The notes under the pieces were generated by a model. That model was not told the origin of the DNA. It did not search any database and saw nothing but the letters and a program-made list of their open reading frames with translations. Both the position numbers and the translations under genes were made by a program. Below are positions 11,609 to 22,436 of a stretch of DNA of 53,687 nucleotides, piece after piece. The stretch is taken from the NCBI GenBank assembly GCA_022360615.1, contig JAKSCL010000295.1, positions 1-53,687 of the forward strand, read 5' to 3'. Position 1 is the first letter of the stretch; each line of letters begins with the position of its first letter. The stretch comes from Hyphomicrobiales bacterium. GTDB lineage: Bacteria; Pseudomonadota; Alphaproteobacteria; Rhizobiales; JAKSCL01.

Positions 11609-13147
11609 ATGGCAGGCACGCGCCTGATCCTCGTTCTCGGCGATCAGCTTTCCCGCACCCTCTCCTCGCTCAGGCGCGGGGTGAAGGGCCGCGATGTGAT
11701 CCTGATGGCCGAAGTCTGGGACGAGACCCAATATGTGAAACACCACAAGAAGAAGATCGCCTTTCTCTTCTCCGCCATGCGCCATTTCGCGGCAGCGTTG
11801 GAAGCGGATGGCTGGTCGGTCGATTACGTTCGGTTGACGGACGAGGGCAATAGGGGGTCCTTCACCGGCGAGGTGGCGCGCGCCATCAAGAGACACGCGC
11901 CCGAGCGCGTCATTGTGACGGAACCCGGCGAATGGCGCGTGCTGCAGATGATGGAGGGTTGGGAAGAGGATTTCGGCGTGCCCGTCGAGATTCTTCCCGA
12001 TGACCGGTTCCTTGCGAGCCACCATGAATTCCAGGACTGGGCGAAGGGCCGCAAGCAGCTGCGCATGGAGTATTTCTATCGCGACATGCGCCGCAAAACC
12101 GGGCTCCTCATGGACGGGGATGCGCCCGAAGGCGGCAAGTGGAATTATGACGCGGAAAACCGCAAGCCCGCGAGACGAGACCTCTTCATGCCATCGCCGA
12201 AGCGGTTCGAACCTCACGAAACGACCAGAGAGGTTTTGGACCTCGTTGCAGACCAATTCTCAGAGCATTTCGGTGATTTGGAGCCGTTCTGGTTCGCGGT
12301 GACAGCCGATGAGGCGGAAGACGCGCTCAGCCATTTCCTGGAGGAGGCCCTCCCCCACTTCGGCGATTACCAGGATGCGATGCTCAAGGATGAGCGGTTC
12401 CTCTATCACTCAATTCTCGGGCTCTACATCAATGCGGGTCTCCTTGACCCGCTGGAGGTCTGCCAGCGCGTGGAAGCCGAGTATGAGAAGGGCCGGGTGC
12501 CGCTCAATGCCGCTGAGGGTTTCATCCGGCAAATCATTGGCTGGCGCGAATATGTGCGCGGCATCTACTGGCTGAAAATGCCGGACTACCTGGAAGAGAA
12601 CTTCTTTGAAGCCGAACGGACCTTGCCGTCCTTCTACTGGACGGGGGAAACGGACATGGCGTGTCTGAAGGCCGCCATCACACAAACCAAGGAAGAGGCT
12701 TACGCCCATCACATTCAGCGGCTGATGGTGACGGGTAATTTCGCGATGCTCGCCGGCATCGATCCGAAGCACGTCCACGCGTGGTATCTGATCGTCTATG
12801 CGGACGCCTATGAGTGGGTGGAACTGCCGAATGTACTCGGCATGAGCCAGTTTAGCGATGGCGGTTTGCTCGCCTCGAAACCCTACGCGGCGGGCGGTAA
12901 CTACATCAACAAGATGTCGGATTATTGCGGGACGTGCCGCTACGACGTGAAGACAAAGACGGGCGAAGGCGCCTGTCCCTTCAACGCGCTTTACTGGGAT
13001 TTCCTCGCCCGGAACGAAGACAAGCTGAAGGGCAACCCGCGGCTCAACCAAGTCTATGCCACCTGGGCGCGCATGAAGCCCGAGACGAAGCAGTCTTACC
13101 GGGCAAGCGCCCACGCCTTTCTCGAAAGCCTCGATTACGATGGATGA
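11609..13147 (+). CDS. phrB: FeS-BCP / CryPro-type (6-4) photolyase
   Basis: Near-collinear resemblance to my memory of Agrobacterium PhrB: LVLGDQLS, HHKKKIAFLFSAMRHF, FIRQIIGWREY, HHIQRLMVTGNF, WVELPNV. Fe-S Cys ligands in ...DYCGTCRYD...GACPFNALYW. Confidence 0.92.
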   Translation: MAGTRLILVLGDQLSRTLSSLRRGVKGRDVILMAEVWDETQYVKHHKKKIAFLFSAMRHFAAALEADGWSVDYVRLTDEGNRGSFTGEVARAIKRHAPERVIVTEPGEWRVLQMMEGWEEDFGVPVEILPDDRFLASHHEFQDWAKGRKQLRMEYFYRDMRRKTGLLMDGDAPEGGKWNYDAENRKPARRDLFMPSPKRFEPHETTREVLDLVADQFSEHFGDLEPFWFAVTADEAEDALSHFLEEALPHFGDYQDAMLKDERFLYHSILGLYINAGLLDPLEVCQRVEAEYEKGRVPLNAAEGFIRQIIGWREYVRGIYWLKMPDYLEENFFEAERTLPSFYWTGETDMACLKAAITQTKEEAYAHHIQRLMVTGNFAMLAGIDPKHVHAWYLIVYADAYEWVELPNVLGMSQFSDGGLLASKPYAAGGNYINKMSDYCGTCRYDVKTKTGEGACPFNALYWDFLARNEDKLKGNPRLNQVYATWARMKPETKQSYRASAHAFLESLDYDG

Positions 13148-13307
13148 CCATGCGATAGAAAAGGCCATCTTGACGCTGTGCGTTGAGCGGCGCGCGGTTG
13201 CGGGCTGGCTTCAAAAAGACGGCCGGATTGCCGTGACGCAAAAGCAGGTGGCTGTCGAAGCCGACATGGCGAAGGGCGCCATCCGGTTGGGTCTGCCGAA
13301 GGTTTAG
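13140..13307 (+). CDS. unannotated 55-codon ORF, possible shortened DUF3253-like protein
   Basis: ATG at 13140 overlaps the phrB stop (ATGGATGA). Translates [55 protein letters not shown]. About 73% GC3 by hand count. The C-terminal G-R-I-x-V-T-Q-K...KG-x-IRLGL resembles the DUF3253 C-terminus as I recall it. Below the 60-aa ORF-track cutoff. Confidence 0.45.
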
Positions 13308-13462
13308 CGGGCGACGGATTTAGTACGTCCCGTCCGCCTGCACCGCTCGGAGCAATAGCGGACATTCTCCCAGTCCCGCTCCCATTTCTTGCGCCAGGTG
13401 AACGGACGTCCGCAGACCGGGCAGGTTTTCACCGGCAGATCGGATTTCTTGCGCGGCTTCAT
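13304..13462 (-). CDS. DUF2256 zinc-ribbon small protein
   Basis: [43 protein letters not shown] (CxxC...CxxxC). The ATG at 13462 overlaps the upstream CPF stop (ATGA). The rest of the 160-aa track ORF lies inside the CPF gene. Confidence 0.8.
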
Positions 13463-15036
13463 TCGGCAGCACCGTCGGCTAAGTCCAAATCCGGCTGCTC
13501 GCCGGGTTTCGCGCTTGTGCGCCGGCGCGCCGGTTTGCCCCGCTTCTGCCCCGTCACCGGCATGCCGCTTTTCCAGCTGCCGTGCTTGTCCTGGATCCGG
13601 TTCGCTTCCGCCCGGAAAGCCGGGCCCTTGCGTGCGGCCCAGATTCTCTGCCGTGCTTCTTTCGCCGCCGTCAGATGGTCGATGACGGGTTCTGGATAGG
13701 TTTTGCCGAGGACGGTGCCGGCCTTTTCCCATTTCCAGGGTTCGTGGATGAATTCCTCCGGAACATCTTTCAGTTCGGGCACCCAACGCCGCACGAAAAC
13801 GCCATCCGTATCCTGGTCATGGCCTTGTTTTATGGGATTGTAGATGCGCACCGTGTTGATGCCGGTGGTGCCCGATTGCATCTGCACCTGCGGCCAGTGG
13901 ATGCCGGGCTCGTAATCGGTGAAGGCACGGGCGAGATGCTCTCCGGGGCGGCGCCAATCGAGCCAGAGGTGATAGCTCGCCACCGCCATCAGCATCGCCC
14001 GCATGCGGAAGTTCATCCAGCCGGTGGCGTTCAGCGCCCGCATGGTGGCGTCGACAAAGGGGAGGCCCGTTTCACCTTTCTCCCAGGCGGCAAGGCGCGT
14101 GGCATCCGGTTCCTTCGGGCGCGCGCCGTCATAGCCGCGGTGCAGGTTCTTGAACTCCAGCCGCGGCTCGTCTTCAAGTTTTTGCATGAAGTGGCAGTGC
14201 CAATGGAGGCGGCCCGAAAACGAGACCATCGAACCGCGCCAGCCGCCAACGGTATCTTTCGGCAGGGTCTTGAGCGCGCGCTGGCGGGCCCAGGTGGCCT
14301 GCGCCACCTCGCGCACGGAAAGCGCGCCATGGGCAAGATAGGGCGAAAGCCGCGAGCAGCCGTCAAACCCGGTGACCGGCGATGACATGTCGCGCCGGTA
14401 GGTCTCGCCGCGCTCATGGAGAAAGGATTGGAACGTCTCAAGCGCGATCTCGCGTCCGCCCCTCTGCCGGCCCGGGCAGGGATCCGGTTCGAGCCCGAGG
14501 TCCAAGGCCGAGGGGATCTGACCAGTGTCTATGCCGGCGATGGACGGAAGCGCGGCCGCCGCAGGCGTTATGGGTTCAGCCATGAAACTGTCCCAGCGCT
14601 TCGCCCAGCCATTGCGCGAGGCGATCCGGCGAATGACGCCCGTTTGCGGTTCCTCATGCCAGGGAACGCCGTTTTCGCGGCACCAGGCTTTCACCCTCAA
14701 ATCGCGTTTGTAGGTCCAGGCATTCCCCGTCTCCTCATGCGACCAGAGCGCCGTAATCCCTCGGTCCATTCGGATTGCCGAGAGGATGTCGACGATATCG
14801 CCGGTGCGCACGACAAGCGGCTGGCCAAGCGCTGCGAGGTCCTCGCGCAGGTCCGCCAAGCACTCGGCAATGAAGGCCCATTGCCGGGCCGACATATCGG
14901 GCTCTTGCCACAAATCCCGTTCGGCCACGTAAAGCGGCAGAACGGGACCGGCTCTGCTGGCGCGGGCAAACGGCCGGTGGTCGTCTACGCGCAAATCCCG
15001 CTTGAACCAGACGACCTGCAGGTCTGCTTTCACCAC
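13459..15036 (-). CDS. cryptochrome/photolyase-family (CPF) flavoprotein, subclass unresolved
   Basis: N-terminal [15 protein letters not shown] alpha/beta domain. C-terminal FAD_binding_7-like [10 protein letters not shown]...[13 protein letters not shown]...RIYNPIKQG...RRWVPEL...HEPWKW, followed by a basic tail. Confidence 0.9.
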
Positions 15037-15737
15037 GGGATCGCCTCGCCGTCATAGGCGAAGAAGCCGCCCGTTTCTTCCGGTGTCAGGCGGTCAAGCA
15101 CGGTAAGAAGATTCTGCGCAGCCTCTGCGGGCGTGTGGGTGGTGCGGCCTTTCGCGTATGCGTGGGTCAGCGCCGTGTCGATGGTGCCGGGGTGGAGCGC
15201 GACGCACACGGCGTCAGGGCGCTTGCGCGCGATTTCTATCGCGGCTACCCGGACCACCTGATTGAGCGCCGCCTTCGATGCCCGGTAGGAAAGCCAGCCG
15301 CCGAGCCTGTTGTCGCCAATCGAGCCCACGCGGGCCGAAAGGGTGGCGAAGATGCTCTTGCCGTCGCGCGCAAGCAGTTTGGCGCCATGCTTGAGGAGGA
15401 GTGCGGGGCCGATGGCATTGACGGCATAGGCACGCGCCATCGTCTGAGCATCGAGATATCTCAGCGCCTTTTCGGGCGGTATCCCGTCGACTTCCAGAAT
15501 GCCGGTCGCATCGAAAATCATGTCGAGCGCCCGGCGGGTTTCGGTGATCTCTTTGAAGGCGGTTTCGACCGTCGTCTCGTCGGCGATGTCGAAGCCTGGA
15601 CGGCTCGAACGGCTGAGACGGATCACAGCGCTGCAGCGCGGGTCTTTGTCAAGAGCATCGGCCATGGCCCCGCCGATGCCGCCCGATGCGCCGACCACAA
15701 GCGCTGTATATCCGTCTCTGAGACTCTCCACCCGCAT
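15030..15737 (-). CDS. SDR family oxidoreductase (C-factor-like)
   Basis: ALVVGASGGIGGA cofactor motif and YRASKAALN catalytic motif. Its stop overlaps the CPF GTG start. Confidence 0.88.
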   Translation of the reverse strand: MRVESLRDGYTALVVGASGGIGGAMADALDKDPRCSAVIRLSRSSRPGFDIADETTVETAFKEITETRRALDMIFDATGILEVDGIPPEKALRYLDAQTMARAYAVNAIGPALLLKHGAKLLARDGKSIFATLSARVGSIGDNRLGGWLSYRASKAALNQVVRVAAIEIARKRPDAVCVALHPGTIDTALTHAYAKGRTTHTPAEAAQNLLTVLDRLTPEETGGFFAYDGEAIPW

Positions 15738-16017
15738 CTCCCGTCCGCAGTCGCGAAACTTAGGGCGAAGCGGCCGGCTGGCCAGCCCTGTCCGTCCTGG
15801 CGGGGACGATGGTTAGGCGACGCGGTCGCGGGGTTGCTGACCGGAGGAGCAGGCGTCGAGATTGGAAATTGCGTGGAGACCCATGGCGTTACCGCTCTCG
15901 CGTGTGGCGCTGCCCACATGGGGCGGTAGAAAGCTGTTGGCGTTTGGCACAACGAGATCCACTCCGCTCCAAAAGGGTGATTACGCCTTTTGGACAAATC
16001 AGGGATAGCTGGAGGGC

Positions 16018-16311
16018 TTATGCCTCGTTCGCCTGCGAATGGCCGCGCTTTTCAAGGACGCGGGCAATGCGCGAGACGACGGATTCAGCGAAGGTCAACA
16101 CGGCGAACAAGGCGATCACGCTTAAAATGTCACGAAAGCCCAGGACAAAACCGCGCCAGGGGCTTTGCGGGAGCAAGCGGATGAGATCGTCGACGTAATA
16201 CCAAGCGCCGTAGGCGAGGGCCGCAGCCAAGAGACTGACGGCTACGGTGATTGCGATTCCGGCGGTGGAGATCGGTATGAGAGCATTCTCGCTTCTCTTA
16301 GAATCGCTCAA
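16018..16311 (-). CDS. hypothetical 2-TM membrane protein
   Basis: 97 aa, TTG start with GAGAGGGA upstream. Two hydrophobic helices (AGIAITVAVSLLAAALAYGAWYY and ILSVIALFAVLTF). No family recognised. Confidence 0.55.
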   Translation of the reverse strand: MSDSKRSENALIPISTAGIAITVAVSLLAAALAYGAWYYVDDLIRLLPQSPWRGFVLGFRDILSVIALFAVLTFAESVVSRIARVLEKRGHSQANEA

Positions 16312-16376
16312 TCCCTCTCACTCCCTATTTTATCGCAAATCCGGACGGACACCCGGTGCCTACTTTTCTGGATTTG

Positions 16377-17159
16377 CTAGAGCAGCTCGGCCGTGTCGAA
16401 ATCGGCCTTGAAGACCAGAAGATTGCCGCGCCGTTCCACCTCGCCCTCAAGCGAGACGGTGAGCGCGAGCAGATCGTAAATCGCGTCGGGCGCGGCCTTG
16501 CCGTCCTTGTCCGCCAGGAGGAAGAATTCTTCGCCCTCGACATTGCCGGTCGAGACGAAGACGGTTGGTATCTCGCCGATCAGGCAAAGGCTGGCACAGG
16601 CTTTGTGGGCAAGGCCGCGGCCCGGACGCATGGCGCCTTGATAACACTTTCCGTCGCAGATTTCGCCGGTTAGCCGCCATCGCCCAAGCGACACGGGTTC
16701 GGGTGGCGCGAAGCCCTCGGGTGGGGTGCCGGTCCCGCCGTTGGCCGGTTTCACGCCGCGTTCCCCACCGGCCAGCTGGATCATGTCGATCGAGCCGCGT
16801 TTCAAGAGCACGCCGCCCGCGAGCACCGCCATACCGTCCTCAAGCGTGCGGCCGACACCCGGACCGCGCTTGCCTTGGCCTGAGAGGAGGAAAGCCGTCG
16901 GTTCGCCCGTTTCCGCATCAGGCGCATAGAGGACGGGGTAGGGCTCGGTGGTGATAATGCCGGTCATTTCCACCCGGTTCCAAACGAAGCGGCCATCGCC
17001 CGGGTCGTTCGCTGTCGTGGCAAGCGAGAACGACAAGAGACCCATCCCAGCAACGAACATGCCGCAGGCAATGGCGAGGAAGGGAACGAGCGGCGCCGGG
17101 ATCTTGTTGAAATAGCCGACGAAGAAGGGCTCGCGCTGTTTGTCGTTTGCGACTGCCAT
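16377..17159 (-). CDS. hypothetical N-terminally anchored protein with two CxxxC motifs and an internal repeat
   Basis: 260 aa. TM anchor LVPFLAIACGMFVAGMGLLSF. Motif C168-x3-C172...C188-x3-C192. Its start lies 2 nt after the upstream Rieske gene stop. Confidence 0.7.
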   Translation of the reverse strand: MAVANDKQREPFFVGYFNKIPAPLVPFLAIACGMFVAGMGLLSFSLATTANDPGDGRFVWNRVEMTGIITTEPYPVLYAPDAETGEPTAFLLSGQGKRGPGVGRTLEDGMAVLAGGVLLKRGSIDMIQLAGGERGVKPANGGTGTPPEGFAPPEPVSLGRWRLTGEICDGKCYQGAMRPGRGLAHKACASLCLIGEIPTVFVSTGNVEGEEFFLLADKDGKAAPDAIYDLLALTVSLEGEVERRGNLLVFKADFDTAELL

Positions 17160-17161
17160 CC

Positions 17162-18229
17162 CTAGGTCACCTTCGCCAATTCATCGGGGATCGTCACTGG
17201 GTCCACATGGGTTCCGGGCGGGTTGGGCCGCGGGTCGAGGAGGATGCGGCTGCCATCGAGTTTCAAGCGGTATGTGGCGATCTTGTCGGTAAACGGGGCA
17301 GGCGCCCGGCCACTGGCCGGGTCGAACTGGAAGCCATGCCACGGGCAGGTGACGCAGCCTGCAATGATCTTGCCCTCGCCAAGCGGTCCGTTCTGGTGAG
17401 CGCAGGCGTTCGTCAGCGCCGAGAGCTTCCCGTCATATTTGAAGATCGCGACGCGCTCGCCGCCCGGAACGTCGAAGGTGATGCCACGCTTTTCCGCGAT
17501 ATCGGCCACGTCGCCCGCAACGACCCAGCCTGTGCCGCCCTCTTCGAGGCGCTCGGGTTCGGCGCGGGCAGGTATGCGCGATGCCGCAAAGTGCAGTCCG
17601 GAAACAGTCAGAACGCTTGCGCCGACGACAACTGCAAAGACGGGGTTCTCCGCGCTTTGCAGATAGCCGAGCGCCACATGCATGACGACAAGGGCGTAGC
17701 AAAGATAAATCGACATGTGGATCGCCTTCCAGACCGTCGGGGTGAGGAAAGCGAGCCAGAAATCGTGGCTTGTGACGGCGAGGATGAGAAGAATGAGAAG
17801 CGCCGCGATGCCGAGCGCCTCAAAGGGGAAGCCCTGTACTTGGCCGAAGCTCGTGTTCGACGACAACATCGCCACGTAAGGATCGACCGGCGAGAAGGCG
17901 AAATACCAGCCAAGCACATAGCTTGCGTGTACGAACGCCACGGCGCAGGTGAGCACACCGAAGTGGCGCCTGTTGTAAAGGAGCGGAAGGAAGCGCCGGT
18001 CAAGCCGGGCAAGCGGTCCGATGCACAAAATGACGCTTAGCATGACGAAGGCACAGCTTCCAAAGGCTTGCATCCTGAGGATTGCGCCATCGGGCGGCCG
18101 CGTCACCGCTTGGAAAGCAGGCGCAACCATCAGATAGACGTAGATGTACAGCACCACACCCGCGATCAAAACGAGATCGTAGATGAGCTTGTTGCGGTTC
18201 CAGGTGACGGGGACGTATTTGACGCTCAT
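17162..18229 (-). CDS. ferric-reductase-like (YedZ/NOX-type) 6-TM domain fused to a C-terminal Rieske [2Fe-2S] domain
   Basis: Six hydrophobic helices carry His pairs H89/H101 and H171/H184. Rieske motif CAH(276-278)-x16-CPWH(295-298). Confidence 0.88.
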   Translation of the reverse strand: MSVKYVPVTWNRNKLIYDLVLIAGVVLYIYVYLMVAPAFQAVTRPPDGAILRMQAFGSCAFVMLSVILCIGPLARLDRRFLPLLYNRRHFGVLTCAVAFVHASYVLGWYFAFSPVDPYVAMLSSNTSFGQVQGFPFEALGIAALLILLILAVTSHDFWLAFLTPTVWKAIHMSIYLCYALVVMHVALGYLQSAENPVFAVVVGASVLTVSGLHFAASRIPARAEPERLEEGGTGWVVAGDVADIAEKRGITFDVPGGERVAIFKYDGKLSALTNACAHQNGPLGEGKIIAGCVTCPWHGFQFDPASGRAPAPFTDKIATYRLKLDGSRILLDPRPNPPGTHVDPVTIPDELAKVT

Positions 18230-18402
18230 CCGCCGCTCTCCCCTGCCTCGCCGTTCCGTTCTGCCGGGGCTTCAAGCAGGACCGCCGGGCGATCGGCGGG
18301 TGTTGTCTGACGCATCACGAGCGCCGCGATAAAGGCAAGCGGCAAGGCGATCCCGAGGATCGTCCAGATGGCCGCGTGGGCCTTGCGGTGCGGACCTTTC
18401 AT
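18226..18402 (-). CDS. hypothetical single-TM small protein (58 aa)
   Basis: MKGPHRKAHAAIWTILGIALPLAFIAALVMR... Stop overlaps the Rieske-fusion ATG (ATGA). Internal ATG at 18402 chosen, because the longer ORF would overlap the upstream gene. Confidence 0.5.
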   Translation of the reverse strand: MKGPHRKAHAAIWTILGIALPLAFIAALVMRQTTPADRPAVLLEAPAERNGEAGESGG

Positions 18403-18409
18403 GACGCCC

Positions 18410-18622
18410 TCATGCCTTCTTCCGCTCAAGCTGCAGCCAGCGCAGAAGCACGAAGGGCCAGAGCACCACGACGCCAAAGGCAATCAGCGGGCGGAACATG
18501 TACGTCCCGCGCGCGGACGCATCAATCCGGTCAATGCCGACGAGTAGAAACACGGCGGCAACCGCGATGCCGATCATGCCATAAATCTTCACCGCTTCGA
18601 CGATGAACGCCGCTGTCTCCAT
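18410..18622 (-). CDS. hypothetical 2-TM small protein (70 aa)
   Basis: METAAFIVEAVKIYGMIGIAVAAVFLLVGIDRID...LIAFGVVVLWPFVLLRWL. First gene of the coupled operon. Confidence 0.55.
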   Translation of the reverse strand: METAAFIVEAVKIYGMIGIAVAAVFLLVGIDRIDASARGTYMFRPLIAFGVVVLWPFVLLRWLQLERKKA

Positions 18623-18757: not shown

Positions 18758-19459
18758 TCAAGCCACAAGCGACGCGGAGAAAATCTGAGAGGCGATGTCC
18801 GCGTTCGACGGGGTGCTGCGATAAGCGTTTTCGGCCACCAGGCGGCTCGCCTCGTCGCGGGGGGCTGTTCTGCGGGGATCCTCGTCCTCGCCACCTCTTT
18901 GTTCCTCCACGCGTTGTTTGGCCAGTTCGGCTTGCGCCTGGGCACGCTGTTGTTGCGCCGTACGGGCAACGGCCATGTCCTGGCTCGATGGCTCAGCCGG
19001 GGCAAGAGCTGCCCGGATGACAACATCCATCTTCCGTATTGTCGCTTCCGGATTATCGCGAACCGGCGCCACGTCGATCTCGACTTCACCGGAGACGGCA
19101 TATTTGCGCCCGTCGGGTCCGGTGGTGAACTCATATTTCGGCGGACCGGCATACGTGCCCCCAACAGTCGCATGGGCCTGCTCGTGGGCGCGGACTTCCG
19201 CATCGCGCTTTTTCAGTTCCTGGACTTGCTTTTCCTCGCCTTCGGTCAGTTCTTCGCCGCCTGCAGCTTTTGCCTTTCCTGGTTTTTCGGTCTCTTCCAC
19301 CGGGCGGCTCGATTGTGCAGCCTCGACACGGTTCGTTGCGGCGCCAGCGGCTTCCGCCGGTGCCACGCCGATGCGTTCCGCAGCCTGGTCCGGACGGCCA
19401 GCGGAGAGACGGTCAAACGTCCCCGCACTCCCCGTGAAACTGGTTGAGCCTGACACCAT
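18758..19459 (-). CDS. SprA-related / putative metalloprotease (CJM1_0395-type) family protein
   Basis: ...ELKKRDAEVRAHEQAHATVGG...PKYEFTTGPDGRKYAVSGEV... is the signature of the SprA-related family as I recall it. It contains an HExxH (HEQAH). Confidence 0.78.
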   Translation of the reverse strand: MVSGSTSFTGSAGTFDRLSAGRPDQAAERIGVAPAEAAGAATNRVEAAQSSRPVEETEKPGKAKAAGGEELTEGEEKQVQELKKRDAEVRAHEQAHATVGGTYAGPPKYEFTTGPDGRKYAVSGEVEIDVAPVRDNPEATIRKMDVVIRAALAPAEPSSQDMAVARTAQQQRAQAQAELAKQRVEEQRGGEDEDPRRTAPRDEASRLVAENAYRSTPSNADIASQIFSASLVA

Positions 19460-19645
19460 GGCGTCCAGTTTAGGCTTGGAACCCTCGCCAGCGGGTTAAC
19501 GGTGTATGAAGGTGCATTCGGCTACGATCATAACGCCGTGAATTCACCTTCCCGTAGATTCTCCGCTAACTCACTTTCGATCCTGGCGCTTTGCGCTACA
19601 CTGAAAGAACAACGGGTCGCATTGGACGAGGCAACACCCGGTCTT

Positions 19646-20116
19646 ATGTTTGATAAATTGCGCTCATTTCTCGAAGACCTAACGGGCAAAAGCGGCAAGC
19701 TGGACCTGGAAAAGGAACTCGACGAAAAAATTGCCGCAGCGGCACTGCTTGTCCATGCCGTTGCCGTGGACGGTGTAATTGAGAATGCCGAGCGCGAGAA
19801 GATGTCGGCGCTTCTGCAAAGCCATTTCTCGCTCAGCAAGAAAGAGACCGACCAACTGATCGAAGAGGCGCGCGAGCGCGATTTTGAATCGGTCGATCTT
19901 TACGGCTTCACGAGTGTCTTGAACCGGAGGCTCGATCATGACGGGCGCAGGCGCATCGTCGAGATGCTTTGGGAAATCGTCTATGCCGATGGAAGCGTCC
20001 ACGAATTCGAGGATAATCTCATCTGGCGGGTGGCGGAGCTTCTCGGCGTTTCGACGCGCACGCGCGTGCGCCTGCGCAAACAGGTGAGCGCTGAGCAGGA
20101 AAACGATGACATTTAA
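19646..20116 (+). CDS. TerB-family (tellurite-resistance TerB-like) protein
   Basis: MFDKLRSFLEDLTG N-terminus and AAALLVHAVAVDGVIENAEREKM...LWEIVYADGSVHEFEDNLIWRVAELLGV repeats. ATG at 19646 preferred over the lower-GC extension from 19502. Confidence 0.8.
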   Translation: MFDKLRSFLEDLTGKSGKLDLEKELDEKIAAAALLVHAVAVDGVIENAEREKMSALLQSHFSLSKKETDQLIEEARERDFESVDLYGFTSVLNRRLDHDGRRRIVEMLWEIVYADGSVHEFEDNLIWRVAELLGVSTRTRVRLRKQVSAEQENDDI

Positions 20117-20867
20117 GATTCTCATCGTCGTTCATCAGGAAACGTCCTCGCCCGGACGGGTCGGACACATGCTTGAGGGGATGGGATACCGGCTCGATAT
20201 CCGCCGTCCGCGCTTCGGCGATCCCCTGCCCGAGACAATGGACGATCATGCGGCGGCGGTTATCTTCGGCGGGCCGATGAGCGCCAATGACGGGGATGAC
20301 TTCATCAAACAGGAAATCGATTGGATTGGCGTTCCTTTAAGGGACAAGAAGCCGTTTCTGGGAATTTGCCTCGGCGCTCAAATGCTTGCCAAGCACCTTG
20401 GCGGCAGCGTTGCGCCGCATCCGCACGGGCACGCCGAGATCGGCTATTACCGCATACGGCCAACGGATGCGGGGCGGCGGCTCACCTGGTGGCCGGAACA
20501 GGTCTATCAATGGCACCGTGACGGCTTCACCTTGCCGCGTGATGCAACGCTTCTGGCAGAGGCCGAGATTTTCCCTGAACAGGCCTTCTCCTTTGGACGA
20601 TCCGCCTATGGCTTGCAGTTCCACCCGGAATTGACGTTGGCCATGATGAACCGCTGGACGGTGAAGGGGGCGCATCGTCTTCTCCTGCCCGGCGCCAAAT
20701 CCCGGGCGGAGCATTTTTCAGGCCGCGCACTTCATGACGGCGCGCTCCGCCGCTGGCTTCGAAACTTCCTGAAGTTCTGGATGCGGTGCGGTTGCGAATC
20801 ACCGCAAATCGAGACCGGTTTCGGTGGCGGCCGGCTTGAACTGCCGATTGCCGCCATCAAGTCGTGA
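20106..20867 (+). CDS. class I glutamine amidotransferase-like protein
   Basis: GICLGAQ nucleophile-elbow Cys and LQFHPE His motif. Overlaps the terB-like stop by 11 nt. Confidence 0.88.
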   Translation: MTFKILIVVHQETSSPGRVGHMLEGMGYRLDIRRPRFGDPLPETMDDHAAAVIFGGPMSANDGDDFIKQEIDWIGVPLRDKKPFLGICLGAQMLAKHLGGSVAPHPHGHAEIGYYRIRPTDAGRRLTWWPEQVYQWHRDGFTLPRDATLLAEAEIFPEQAFSFGRSAYGLQFHPELTLAMMNRWTVKGAHRLLLPGAKSRAEHFSGRALHDGALRRWLRNFLKFWMRCGCESPQIETGFGGGRLELPIAAIKS

Positions 20868-21206: not shown

Positions 21207-21818
21207 CTAAGCAACCTTGGAAAGCGGCGCGCCGTTCAGTTTCACTGAAATATTTGCAGGCGTCTTCTGGGTCATGGCCTGCAGCGACATGCAGGCCTGC
21301 CGGCACCAGCGTACGAAATCCTCGACATCTTTTTCCGATTGCTCCGTCTCAATCAGAAGGTGGATGTCAACCTTGTCCGCCGCCCCGAAGACATCCTTTG
21401 GATGGATGCCGCCAAGATTGAGCGTCGTTGAGAAACACGCCTTCTGCTCAAGCCTTGTCTTGAGATCGATGCCGAGCTGATTTGCGAGCATCTCGATATG
21501 CGACATCATGCAAAGCGCGAGACCGGTGGCGAAATACATGATGGGGGACGGCGCGCTGCCCCGTCCACCGACAGCGGTTCCCTCGTCGCTGATGATTTCC
21601 CAGGTTCCGCCGTTCGGCACGTTTGAAAAGATCGTCGCCTTTTTCAAGTGCTTGCCTTGAGGCAGCGCTTCCACATTCACATGCGCGTTGAACTGCATGG
21701 TCTGGCCCTGCTTCACCTTTTCCAAGGCCGGATCGCCAAAAGTCTCCTGCGATCCCTCGCGGTCGACCTTCCTTACGATTGTGTCCTCCCGCATCGTCCA
21801 TGAGACGGTGTCATTCAT
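21207..21818 (-). CDS. OsmC/Ohr-family peroxiredoxin-like protein (long form, 203 aa)
   Basis: ...GGRGSAPSPIMYFATGLALCMMSH... core motif. ATG at 21818 chosen, since the longer ORF would run into the operator region. Confidence 0.8.
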   Translation of the reverse strand: MNDTVSWTMREDTIVRKVDREGSQETFGDPALEKVKQGQTMQFNAHVNVEALPQGKHLKKATIFSNVPNGGTWEIISDEGTAVGGRGSAPSPIMYFATGLALCMMSHIEMLANQLGIDLKTRLEQKACFSTTLNLGGIHPKDVFGAADKVDIHLLIETEQSEKDVEDFVRWCRQACMSLQAMTQKTPANISVKLNGAPLSKVA

Positions 21819-21849
21819 CGTCAAATCCTCTTGCTGCTCCGTGCGTATG

Positions 21850-21900
21850 GTTGCAATATGCAACTTTCTCCATGTGGGGATACTAGTTGCTATATGCAAC
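21850..21900. promoter_or_regulatory. two near-identical palindromic boxes, probable MarR operators
   Basis: GTTGCAATATGCAAC (21850-21864) and GTTGCTATATGCAAC (21886-21900), 36 bp apart, in the divergent osmC-like/marR intergenic region. Confidence 0.55.
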
Positions 21901-21971
21901 TATCTTTAGCGTATTTCGATAGGGCGATGAAACGGATGGGTAGAGGCAGGGGCTGGGCGACGGGGGAGAAC

Positions 21972-22436
21972 ATGGGACTCGACAACAGAGTTCCCTTTCT
22001 CCTCTCTCGGACGAGCTATCTGATTAAGAAGCACATATTGAGTACACTCGCTGGCCAGGGTTTGGACGGTCTGACTGGAGAGGAAATGGCTATTCTCGGC
22101 CGCGTTCACGAAACGCCTGGTCTCTCGCAATCGGAAATCTCGAACCGGACCATCAAAGACAAAACCACCGTTTCGCGCCTGATTGCCGGAATGGAGCGGA
22201 AAAACCTGATCGAGAGACGGCGGGATGCGGCGGACAAGCGGGTTTTTCACATCCATTTAACCGAGAAGGGTGAGATGTTTGCGGTGGCGCTCTTCGATCT
22301 CATGGATCGGGTGACCGAGGACATTACCGCGGAGATCTCGAATGAGGATCTGGAGACAACGCTTAAAACGTTGAAGGCAGTCTATGCGCGGGCCATCACG
22401 CTGCATGCCTTGGAAGATGAGGTGTCAGGAAAGTAG
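21972..22436 (+). CDS. MarR family transcriptional regulator
   Basis: Winged-helix region ...LSQSEISNRTIKDKTTVSRLIAGMERKNLIERRRDAADKRVFHIHLTEKG. ATG at 21972 has GGGGGAGA 4 nt upstream. Confidence 0.88.
   Translation: MGLDNRVPFLLSRTSYLIKKHILSTLAGQGLDGLTGEEMAILGRVHETPGLSQSEISNRTIKDKTTVSRLIAGMERKNLIERRRDAADKRVFHIHLTEKGEMFAVALFDLMDRVTEDITAEISNEDLETTLKTLKAVYARAITLHALEDEVSGK

Follow-up and report, generated by a model that had tools for sequence, protein, structure and literature searches.

To our knowledge, only two bacterial uses of the heme domain common to NOX, STEAP and MsrQ proteins are understood, the MsrPQ repair system and bacterial NOX. In MsrPQ (YedZ-YedY), a six-helix heme protein with a ferric reductase-like transmembrane domain (FRD), MsrQ, passes electrons from the cytoplasm to a dedicated periplasmic partner, MsrP, encoded by the adjacent gene. 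We describe here a cassette of five genes with a similar plan, carried by the minus strand of a 53,687-nucleotide stretch from a Hyphomicrobiales bacterium (assembly GCA_022360615.1, contig JAKSCL010000295.1; this whole stretch is referred to as the window). The central gene encodes a protein in which an FRD is joined to a Rieske domain, hereafter the fusion protein. The four others encode two small membrane proteins (p70 and p58), an anchored protein with invariant Cys residues (p260) and a third small membrane protein (p97). The cassette is probably a previously undescribed and widely conserved bacterial membrane complex, through which electrons are carried across the membrane.

The cassette departs from MsrPQ at several points. 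The MsrQ model matches the transmembrane (TM) part of the fusion protein (E = 5.5e-11) with only 42.4 bits for an equivalog cut-off of 130, and Pfam and NCBIfam give no molybdopterin domain among the five proteins or their conserved neighbours. MsrQ binds one heme plus flavin mononucleotide (FMN) and lacks the inner His pair, the flavin taking the place of the inner heme in the state that it shares with STEAP (PMC12525009; PMC3591440). The fusion protein, in contrast, keeps all four His, and thus corresponds to the NOX/FRE state and not to the MsrQ/STEAP state. In MsrPQ a flavin reductase, as a protein of its own, supplies the electrons; in the cassette the fused Rieske domain would do so. MsrP is a molybdoenzyme exported by the twin-arginine (Tat) route, whereas the partner here is OB-like, anchored and marked by a Cys3-His-Met signature, and the cassette adds three small membrane subunits.

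With the NOX proteins (NOX5, SpNOX, NOX2-p22phox) the fusion protein shares the diheme six-helix core and the His pairs on helices 3 and 5. The best Foldseek match of its TM part is the NOX5 TM domain (5o0t, TMt 0.65); human NOX5, DUOX1, STEAP1/2 and NOX2 are matched as well. However, Pfam recognises no FAD/NADPH dehydrogenase domain on the fusion protein, which carries a one-electron Rieske cluster instead. Unlike NOX, the cassette has an obligatory periplasmic partner domain, and nothing points to O2 as acceptor. The cassette resembles MsrPQ and NOX in its manner of working but belongs to neither.

Looser likenesses concern p260. Several anchored or periplasmic metallochaperones are known: Sco1/SenC (CxxxC and His), the OB-fold protein CusF, and the OB-fold heme chaperone CcmE with the six-helix CcmC and the small CcmD. 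An N-terminal anchor, Cys, His and Met residues of ligand type, an OB-like barrel, and polytopic heme and small TM partners recall this group. We take these as leads only. No sequence or significant structural match accompanies them, and both the motif and the tandem-barrel layout differ. The Sco3746-type dual Sec-Tat fusions of a heme domain and a molybdenum cofactor domain (Tooke et al. 2017, PMC5449189) are single polypeptides whose final helix connects a heme-b membrane domain with a redox domain outside the cytoplasm. The same arrangement is seen in single-chain FRD-Rieske-p260 proteins (see below), some of which carry RRF before this helix. Here the likeness is one of layout only: in the window the genes are separate, no RR motif precedes the helix of p260 or helix 6 of the fusion protein, and the external domain is not a molybdoenzyme. 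Lastly, an architecture combining FRD and Rieske was catalogued in 2013: the FRD survey of Zhang et al. (PMC3591440) places Rieske, with an FMN domain, under bacterial model M4 as an accessory domain for electron transfer. M4 may correspond to the two-domain fusion protein; the survey gives no operon, partners, topology or function.

Conservation of the cassette and of its small genes

A homolog search with the fusion protein gives thousands of relatives which, where named, are called only "Rieske 2Fe-2S domain-containing protein" or [quoted passage not shown]. Scanning one genome per species yielded at least 593 loci, 80 of which were retained for locus analysis. Gene order and strand (p70, p58, fusion, p260, small two-TM gene) recur in these 80 loci. 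A p70 homolog (40-63% identity) is found at the same position in 77 of them, the three others having no upstream sequence; p260 is found in 79, the single miss being cut by a contig end. In the reciprocal survey, based on a p260 profile search of metagenomes (80 loci), a fusion-gene match is present in 78 loci, and the two others, L096 and L159, each have less than 100 nt upstream of p260. Strict adjacency of the fusion gene and p260 is seen in 52 of the 55 metagenome loci having at least 1.2 kb upstream. The order of p70, p58, fusion and p260 is kept in the metagenome loci too. The co-occurrence of the partners with fusion orthologs, expected from the initial annotation of this DNA, thus holds in both directions of the search.

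Order and coupling are kept across Rhodobacterales, Hyphomicrobiales, Rhodospirillales, Acetobacteraceae and one Nitrosovibrio genome. The carriers comprise Roseobacter-group bacteria, Roseibium, rhizobia, Acetobacteraceae, the Nitrosovibrio genome and a Phycisphaerales metagenome-assembled genome (MAG). In the window, p70 and p58 are separated by a 7-nt gap, p58 and the fusion gene overlap by ATGA, the fusion gene and p260 are 2 nt apart, and a 65-nt spacer separates p260 from p97. A purine-rich, Shine-Dalgarno-like stretch lies ahead of all five starts. These five minus-strand open reading frames (ORFs) and their junctions (Table 1) are those described initially, as read from the ORF list and the sequence, and the claim that they form a tight unit is supported by the coupling in the window together with the order conserved elsewhere. 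On a plasmid of Rhizobium leguminosarum all five genes are annotated by RefSeq (hypothetical, hypothetical, Rieske, hypothetical, hypothetical). Judged from these annotations and from a position and sequence conserved across dozens of genomes, the small ORFs are real genes.

The protein p70 has two helices, with a conserved GIDRxDxxARGxYxFRP in its predicted periplasmic loop, and its 416 homologs are all named "hypothetical". In p58 a cytoplasmic HRxAHxxIW motif is followed by one TM helix and a periplasmic RQ..P tail; its ATG start agrees with the MKRAHR... start of its homologs. By tblastn p58 was found in only 43 of the 80 loci. When the upstream region was inspected, its equivalent appeared as a separate ORF ending at the start of the fusion gene (37 of 77 loci) or as the C-terminal third of the p70 ORF (40 of 77 loci). 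In the latter case a single ORF encodes a protein of about 125 aa (p125) with three helices, of which p70 is the N-terminal two thirds. By this comparison of ORFs, p70 and p58 are the two halves of one protein, split in the lineage of the window and in Roseibium.

Plain tblastn gave no match for p97 in the 80 loci. The possibility that p97 stands outside the unit was nevertheless overturned by a positional ORF search and by a hidden Markov model (HMM). In at least 60 of 78 loci the p260 stop lies no more than a few bases from the start of a two-helix ORF of 61-114 aa, and most often the two genes overlap by 4 nt. These small downstream ORFs share with p97, itself a protein of two helices with an RG..R loop and a second helix of "LAVFxVLTF" type, an "RG(T)...R" loop and a "LAVFxVLTF"-like second helix. 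When the ORFs of the window are scored with the HMM derived from this set, p97 comes out on top (E = 0.004). As far as these sequences tell, p97 has diverged within the small gene family located after p260.

None of the four partners of the fusion protein has a match in Pfam or NCBIfam, and their assignment to a known family was also rejected after searches with PDB sequence profiles and Foldseek, which gave nothing significant. Their homologs are all "hypothetical"; the partners thus belong to no described family, in agreement with the first description of the locus.

The cassette would be a third use of the heme domain, represented by about 2000 p260 clusters at 50% identity and by at least 593 species-level genomes with a relative of the fusion protein. 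In it, a one-electron Rieske input is combined with three wholly unannotated protein families. It could reveal a new route for cytoplasmic reducing power into the periplasm, and once the periplasmic chemistry of the cassette is defined, thousands of genes now called "hypothetical" would receive a function. The cassette lends itself to direct tests, with few genes, predicted cofactors that are easily followed by spectroscopy, and natural fusions that suggest how it may be expressed.

The fusion protein and its partner p260

The only Pfam models found on the 355-aa protein are PF01794 (residues 57-181, 43.1 bits for a cut-off of 28) and Rieske-type models (PF00355, PF13806 and PF22543), PF00355 covering residues 235-320 with 55.2 bits (cut-off 20.3). 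This profile scan, run on the five proteins, returns the pair of domains that had been anticipated. The AlphaFold2 (AF2) model (pLDDT 82) consists of six long helices then a beta-rich domain, with H89 and H101 on helix 3 and H171 and H184 on helix 5. Apart from one exception at H184, none of the four His varies among 142-148 aligned homologs; the pairs pointed out in the initial annotation are thus conserved. A six-helix core with His pairs 12-14 residues apart on helices 3 and 5 is of the diheme, NOX/FRE type. Two b-heme sites are predicted, formed by His89/His171 on the cytoplasmic side and by His101/His184 on the periplasmic side.

The Rieske ligands C276, H278, C295 and H298 are invariant in 155-156 homologs. 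By sequence (2qpz, E = 3.8e-11) and by fold (Foldseek matches to the Rieske ferredoxins of aromatic dioxygenases, TMt 0.75-0.79) the domain resembles the NDO, BphF and CarAc ferredoxins. An extra Cys pair is the mark of high-potential, bc1-type Rieske proteins, and its absence that of the low-potential ferredoxin class. The sequence of the fusion Rieske domain has no such pair, which assigns it to the dioxygenase-ferredoxin, low-potential type. The loop charges around the six helices follow the positive-inside rule: the N terminus is at +3, loop 75-88 has five K/R for one acidic residue, and the periplasmic loops are neutral or acidic. These charges argue that the Rieske domain is cytoplasmic, as expected for an Fe-S domain when helix 6 is preceded by no twin-arginine signal.

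In the AF2 model of p260 the anchor helix is followed by two OB-like beta-barrels, with a short helix and a longer one between strands of the second barrel. Foldseek returns only SSB-type OB domains, and these matches are weak (E 4e-3 to 7e-2, per-domain TM 0.5-0.6); the sequence profile search of the PDB gives none. To judge by these searches p260 belongs to a new family without described relatives. Its profile search collected 1995 representatives at 50% identity.

Among 150 of these representatives the invariant positions are K97, G165, D169, K171, C172, G175, M177, P179, H185, C188 and C192, and p260 is otherwise variable outside the Cys3-His-Met motif. The protein had been described as carrying four Cys. 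Three of them are invariant, but C168 is a Cys in only 59 of the 150 representatives, and the signature is Cys3-His-Met. The formation of two disulfides from the four Cys was considered as the sole role of p260 and rejected: C168 is not conserved while its would-be partner in a twin CX3C, C192, is kept even where C168 is absent. With an odd number of invariant Cys, plus the His and the Met, a site for a metal, a heme or redox chemistry is more plausible than purely structural disulfides. The segment 165-192 is the candidate metal or redox centre.

The N-side flank of the p260 anchor has on average 2.3 K/R and 0.4 D/E, for 1.2 K/R and 2.2 D/E on the C side, and 123 of 131 members carry the higher net charge at the N flank, which corresponds to an N-in/C-out orientation. 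These flank charges and the existence of single-chain fusions argue that the barrels are periplasmic. In three p260 representatives, PF01794, PF00355 and a whole p260 are found in one chain of 563-623 aa; the clusters concerned are P0421/P0510 (WP_203074759.1, from the isolate Falsiroseomonas ponticola), P0470 and P0473. The cluster of WP_203074759.1 was found in three independent sources, and since it also contains a protein from an isolate, the single-chain protein is real. P0470 apparently lacks FRD helices 4-5. In the single-chain proteins just one helix lies between the Rieske domain and the barrels of p260, which places the two on opposite sides of the membrane. The vectorial transfer initially proposed is therefore topologically sensible, as indicated both by the charges and by the single chains. 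The single chains also argue strongly for a joint physical action of the heme-Rieske protein and p260.

The helix of the window p260 is preceded by FNKIPAPL, with no twin-arginine. Any cofactor of this protein would thus be acquired outside the cytoplasm, which argues against an Fe-S cluster; Tat export and an Fe-S cluster were both rejected for the window p260 on the absence of an RR motif. A Tat-like L-R-R-F-[LAV] is aligned before the anchor in 36 of 150 representatives (P0371-P0508; equivalent segment of the window, 17085-17110), and its presence does not correlate with the Cys pattern. One member of this RR type comes from a Phycisphaerales (Planctomycetota) MAG, so that the family extends beyond Proteobacteria.

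A candidate electron path and its alternatives

By flanking-ORF clustering and Pfam/NCBIfam scans, the cassette is extended by further genes in about 30 of the 80 loci (L002-L009, L016, L035, L039, L042, L046-L048, L058, L061, L064, L071, L076 and L077; e.g. L077:2649-10082), and stop and start codons often overlap there. The added genes encode a CPA1-type K+(Na+)/H+ antiporter, a 536-aa protein with an N-terminal Rieske and a glutamate-synthase FMN domain (PF01645; Rieske-GltS), and a 660-aa protein with an N-terminal Rieske and a thiamine pyrophosphate (TPP) enzyme closest to pyruvate oxidase and ubiquinone-dependent pyruvate dehydrogenase (Rieske-TPP). The order is antiporter, Rieske-GltS, p125, fusion, p260, small gene, Rieske-TPP in Rhodobacteraceae, and antiporter, Rieske-GltS, Rieske-TPP, p70, p58, fusion, p260, small gene in Roseibium. 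This linkage outlasts rearrangement, which argues for a functional coupling. TPP enzymes without Rieske also recur nearby, on the opposite strand. The Rieske domains of the TPP enzyme and of the fusion protein are close paralogs (32% identity, E = 2e-14, shared HQxGPLGEG...CPWHG), and the Rieske-fused soluble enzymes are candidate cytoplasmic electron donors. The genes of Rieske-TPP, Rieske-GltS and the antiporter are absent from the whole window; the five-gene membrane module is thus the autonomous core.

We tentatively favour the reading in which the five genes encode one membrane complex of 12 helices that acts as a transmembrane single-electron conduit to p260, and we give it a little less than an even chance. 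The cytoplasmic low-potential Rieske [2Fe-2S] cluster would take single electrons from cytoplasmic donors, which would be the PoxB-like TPP and GltS-like FMN enzymes with their N-terminal Rieske where these are present. From the Rieske cluster the electrons would pass to the inner heme (H89/H171) and then to the outer heme (H101/H184) of the NOX-like six-helix domain. The acceptor of the outer heme would be the periplasmic centre of p260 formed by Cys172, Met177, His185, Cys188 and Cys192. This centre, most likely metal-binding (Cu, Fe or heme) and loaded outside the cytoplasm, would either reduce a periplasmic substrate or hold the metal being reduced. p70 with p58 (three helices) and p97 (two helices) would be structural partners of the heme domain, in the manner of p22phox for NOX. 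FRD proteins are classic metalloreductases and this, together with the ligand set, weakly favours a metal-centred site (Cu, Fe or heme) in p260.

Several observations weigh against this conduit to p260, or at least against its certainty. No obvious Rieske reductase or donor gene is found in the window. No cofactor-binding fold is recognised in p260, for which there are only the weak OB-fold matches (E >= 4e-3) and no PDB match by sequence, and its Cys could partly serve in structural disulfides. The loading of the cofactor may differ between lineages, given that RRF precedes the anchor in 36 of the 150 representatives and not in the window protein. What the sequences show is the linkage of the genes, the identity of the domains, the invariance of the ligands, the logic of the topology and the natural gene fusions. 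The direction of electron flow cannot be read from sequence; we infer that it is outward, in the same way as we infer cofactor occupancy, complex formation, the nature of the p260 centre and the substrate. Full-text literature searches returned no paper describing the cassette beyond the architecture catalogue of 2013. They likewise found no characterised system of such composition, as the initial annotation had supposed.

A more specific form of the conduit is possible, although we find it doubtful: a third class of FRD electron export beside MsrPQ and bacterial NOX. A Rieske-to-Rieske handover from PoxB-like and GltS-like dehydrogenases to the Rieske-diheme conduit would there power the p260 centre, a new periplasmic one held on a tandem-barrel fold not seen before. 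If true, this would link the oxidation of 2-oxoacids and amino acids to periplasmic redox chemistry (metal reduction, repair) in abundant marine and soil Alphaproteobacteria.

The diheme domain may otherwise exchange electrons with the quinone pool and link cytoplasmic Rieske-type enzymes to respiration. It could then act in two ways: as a Rieske:quinone oxidoreductase comparable to PoxB or ETF-QO, or as a quinol dehydrogenase resembling NarI, which would supply a cytoplasmic reductase. p260 and the small proteins would serve in assembly, stabilisation or regulation, and p260 would not be the electron acceptor. The kinship of the co-encoded TPP enzyme with pyruvate oxidase and ubiquinone-dependent pyruvate dehydrogenase fits this explanation, as does the bound ubiquinone, a possible electron acceptor, of E. 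coli MsrQ from the same superfamily (PMC12525009). The window has, moreover, no periplasmic catalytic partner of a type known to Pfam or NCBIfam. We judge the explanation unlikely, however, as it does not account for the invariant Cys3-His-Met domain of p260, which is obligately linked and sometimes fused to the heme protein, and as a quinone site is not identifiable from sequence. Reduction of O2 at the outer heme is less probable still. Superoxide or H2O2 would be produced in the periplasm as by NOX, the Rieske domain replacing the FAD/NADPH domain, and p70/p58, p97 and p260 would be maturation or stabilising partners like p22phox, DUOXA and EROS. The retention of all four heme His as in NOX and not in MsrQ/STEAP, the structural matches of the TM domain (best with NOX5, DUOX1 and NOX2) and the small TM partners typical of NOX all agree with it; 8kei (NOX2-p22phox-EROS) is among the Foldseek matches of the fusion protein. 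But this structural likeness is limited to the heme-binding TM core common to all FRD proteins, O2 reduction needs no dedicated invariant Cys/His/Met site on a periplasmic partner, and genes for superoxide dismutase, catalase or signalling are not consistently linked to the cassette in the flanking-ORF clusters.

We find it about as improbable that p260 is a metal-free thiol reductant, an analogue of MsrPQ or DsbD. Its redox-active dithiol, composed of a helical CxxxC and a resolving Cys, would act on small molecules or oxidised proteins of the periplasm, and the heme conduit would return it to the reduced state. The three invariant Cys, including C188-x3-C192, are compatible with such a role, and so is a periplasmic p260 exported unfolded, without twin-arginine, in the lineage of the window. 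The Rhizobium cassette adjoins an extracytoplasmic function (ECF) sigma factor/NrsF pair and a chlorite-dismutase-family gene, but this stress-gene neighbourhood was seen in a single genus. The equally invariant His185 and Met177 point rather to metal or heme ligation, and direct electron transfer from heme to disulfide has little precedent. As to a fortuitous adjacency of the genes, or small ORFs that are not genes, the small proteins have no family assignment and p97 was missed by plain tblastn. This explanation is effectively refuted by the conservation data, and we give it almost no weight: order and coupling are kept across the five groups listed above, neighbouring genes are found fused, and RefSeq calls all five genes.

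Locus features and neighbouring genes

Table 1. Features of the cassette in the window (positions count from the first nucleotide of the stretch)
Feature	Positions	Strand	Description	Basis
p70	18410-18622	-	70 aa, ATG start	ORF list
p58	18226-18402	-	58 aa, ATG start, inside an 85-aa ORF with TTG start	ORF list and sequence
Fusion protein	17162-18229	-	355 aa, ATG start	ORF list
Transmembrane FRD region	17576-18196	-	about aa 12-218	AF2 helices, invariant His, loop charges
Rieske domain	17240-17527	-	aa 235-330	Pfam/NCBIfam, 2qpz match, Foldseek, invariant ligands
p260	16377-17159	-	260 aa, ATG start	ORF list
p260 predicted fold	16377-17159	-	N-terminal anchor helix (24-49) and two OB-like beta-barrels	AF2, pLDDT 87.6
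p260 invariant motif	16584-16667	-	aa 165-192, G-E-x-D-x-K-C172-x2-G-x-M177-[KR]-P-x2-G-x2-H185-x2-C188-x3-C192
8-bp inverted repeat	16335-16377	-	p260-p97 spacer	fold -15.7 kcal/mol, z = -0.68 vs shuffles
p97	16018-16311	-	97 aa, TTG start, GGGAG/GAGAGG ribosome-binding site	ORF list
Hairpin	15968-15994	-	CCAAAAGG-N9-CCUUUUGG, about 25 nt past the p97 stop, no U tract	z = -2.2

The inverted repeat noted in the p260-p97 spacer is present, over 8 bp, but it folds no better than shuffled sequences. In other genomes p260 and the small downstream gene overlap by 4 nt and there is no spacer. A regulatory hairpin in the spacer was ruled out on these two grounds, and the repeat probably has no special significance. 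The hairpin past the p97 stop is matched in folding by 3 of 200 shuffles and is not among the calls of the terminator scan. The operon probably has its 3' end there, and the hairpin may separate the cassette transcript from the downstream SDR-photolyase operon. The counts of the promoter and terminator scan of the window are at shuffle level and thus uninformative.

The adjacency to an SDR-CPF-DUF2256 operon, reported in the initial annotation, is correct for the window, where the SDR gene is co-oriented and 280 bp from p97. It does not extend to other genomes: a link of the cassette to photolyase genes was rejected, the SDR gene, both photolyase-family genes and DUF2256 being linked to it in none of the 80 other loci. 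Where an SDR flanks the cassette in another genome, it is not orthologous to the window SDR (27% identity). The photolyase cluster occupies positions 11609-15737. The SDR gene (15030-15737, -) overlaps the start of a 525-aa photolyase/cryptochrome gene (13459-15036, -; PF00875 and PF03441), which itself overlaps a DUF2256 zinc-ribbon-like ORF (13304-13480, -). A gene for a 512-aa PF04244 "photolyase-related protein" (11609-13147, +) has its 3' end facing the SDR-photolyase genes.

SDR or patatin genes adjoin the cassette in about a dozen other loci. On the R. leguminosarum WSM1689 plasmid (NZ_CP007050.1, 32941-39429; locus L161) an SDR gene precedes the cassette with an 8-nt gap, and the cassette is followed by genes for a TetR regulator, an ECF sigma factor with DUF1109/NrsF anti-sigma proteins, and a chlorite-dismutase-family protein.

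On the other side of the cassette in the window, a gene for a 233-aa SprA-related protein (18758-19459, -; PF12118, E = 9e-38) lies upstream of p70, co-oriented and separated by 135 nt; it is linked to the cassette in none of the 80 other loci. Divergent from it is a pair of genes (19502-20867, +) encoding a TerB-domain protein (204 aa) and a class-I glutamine amidotransferase (253 aa), the stop of the first overlapping the start of the second. Further along, an OsmC-like gene (-) and a MarR-family regulator gene (+) form a divergent pair at 21207-22436. Their longest ORFs overlap by about 70 nt, and at least one of the two starts probably lies further downstream.

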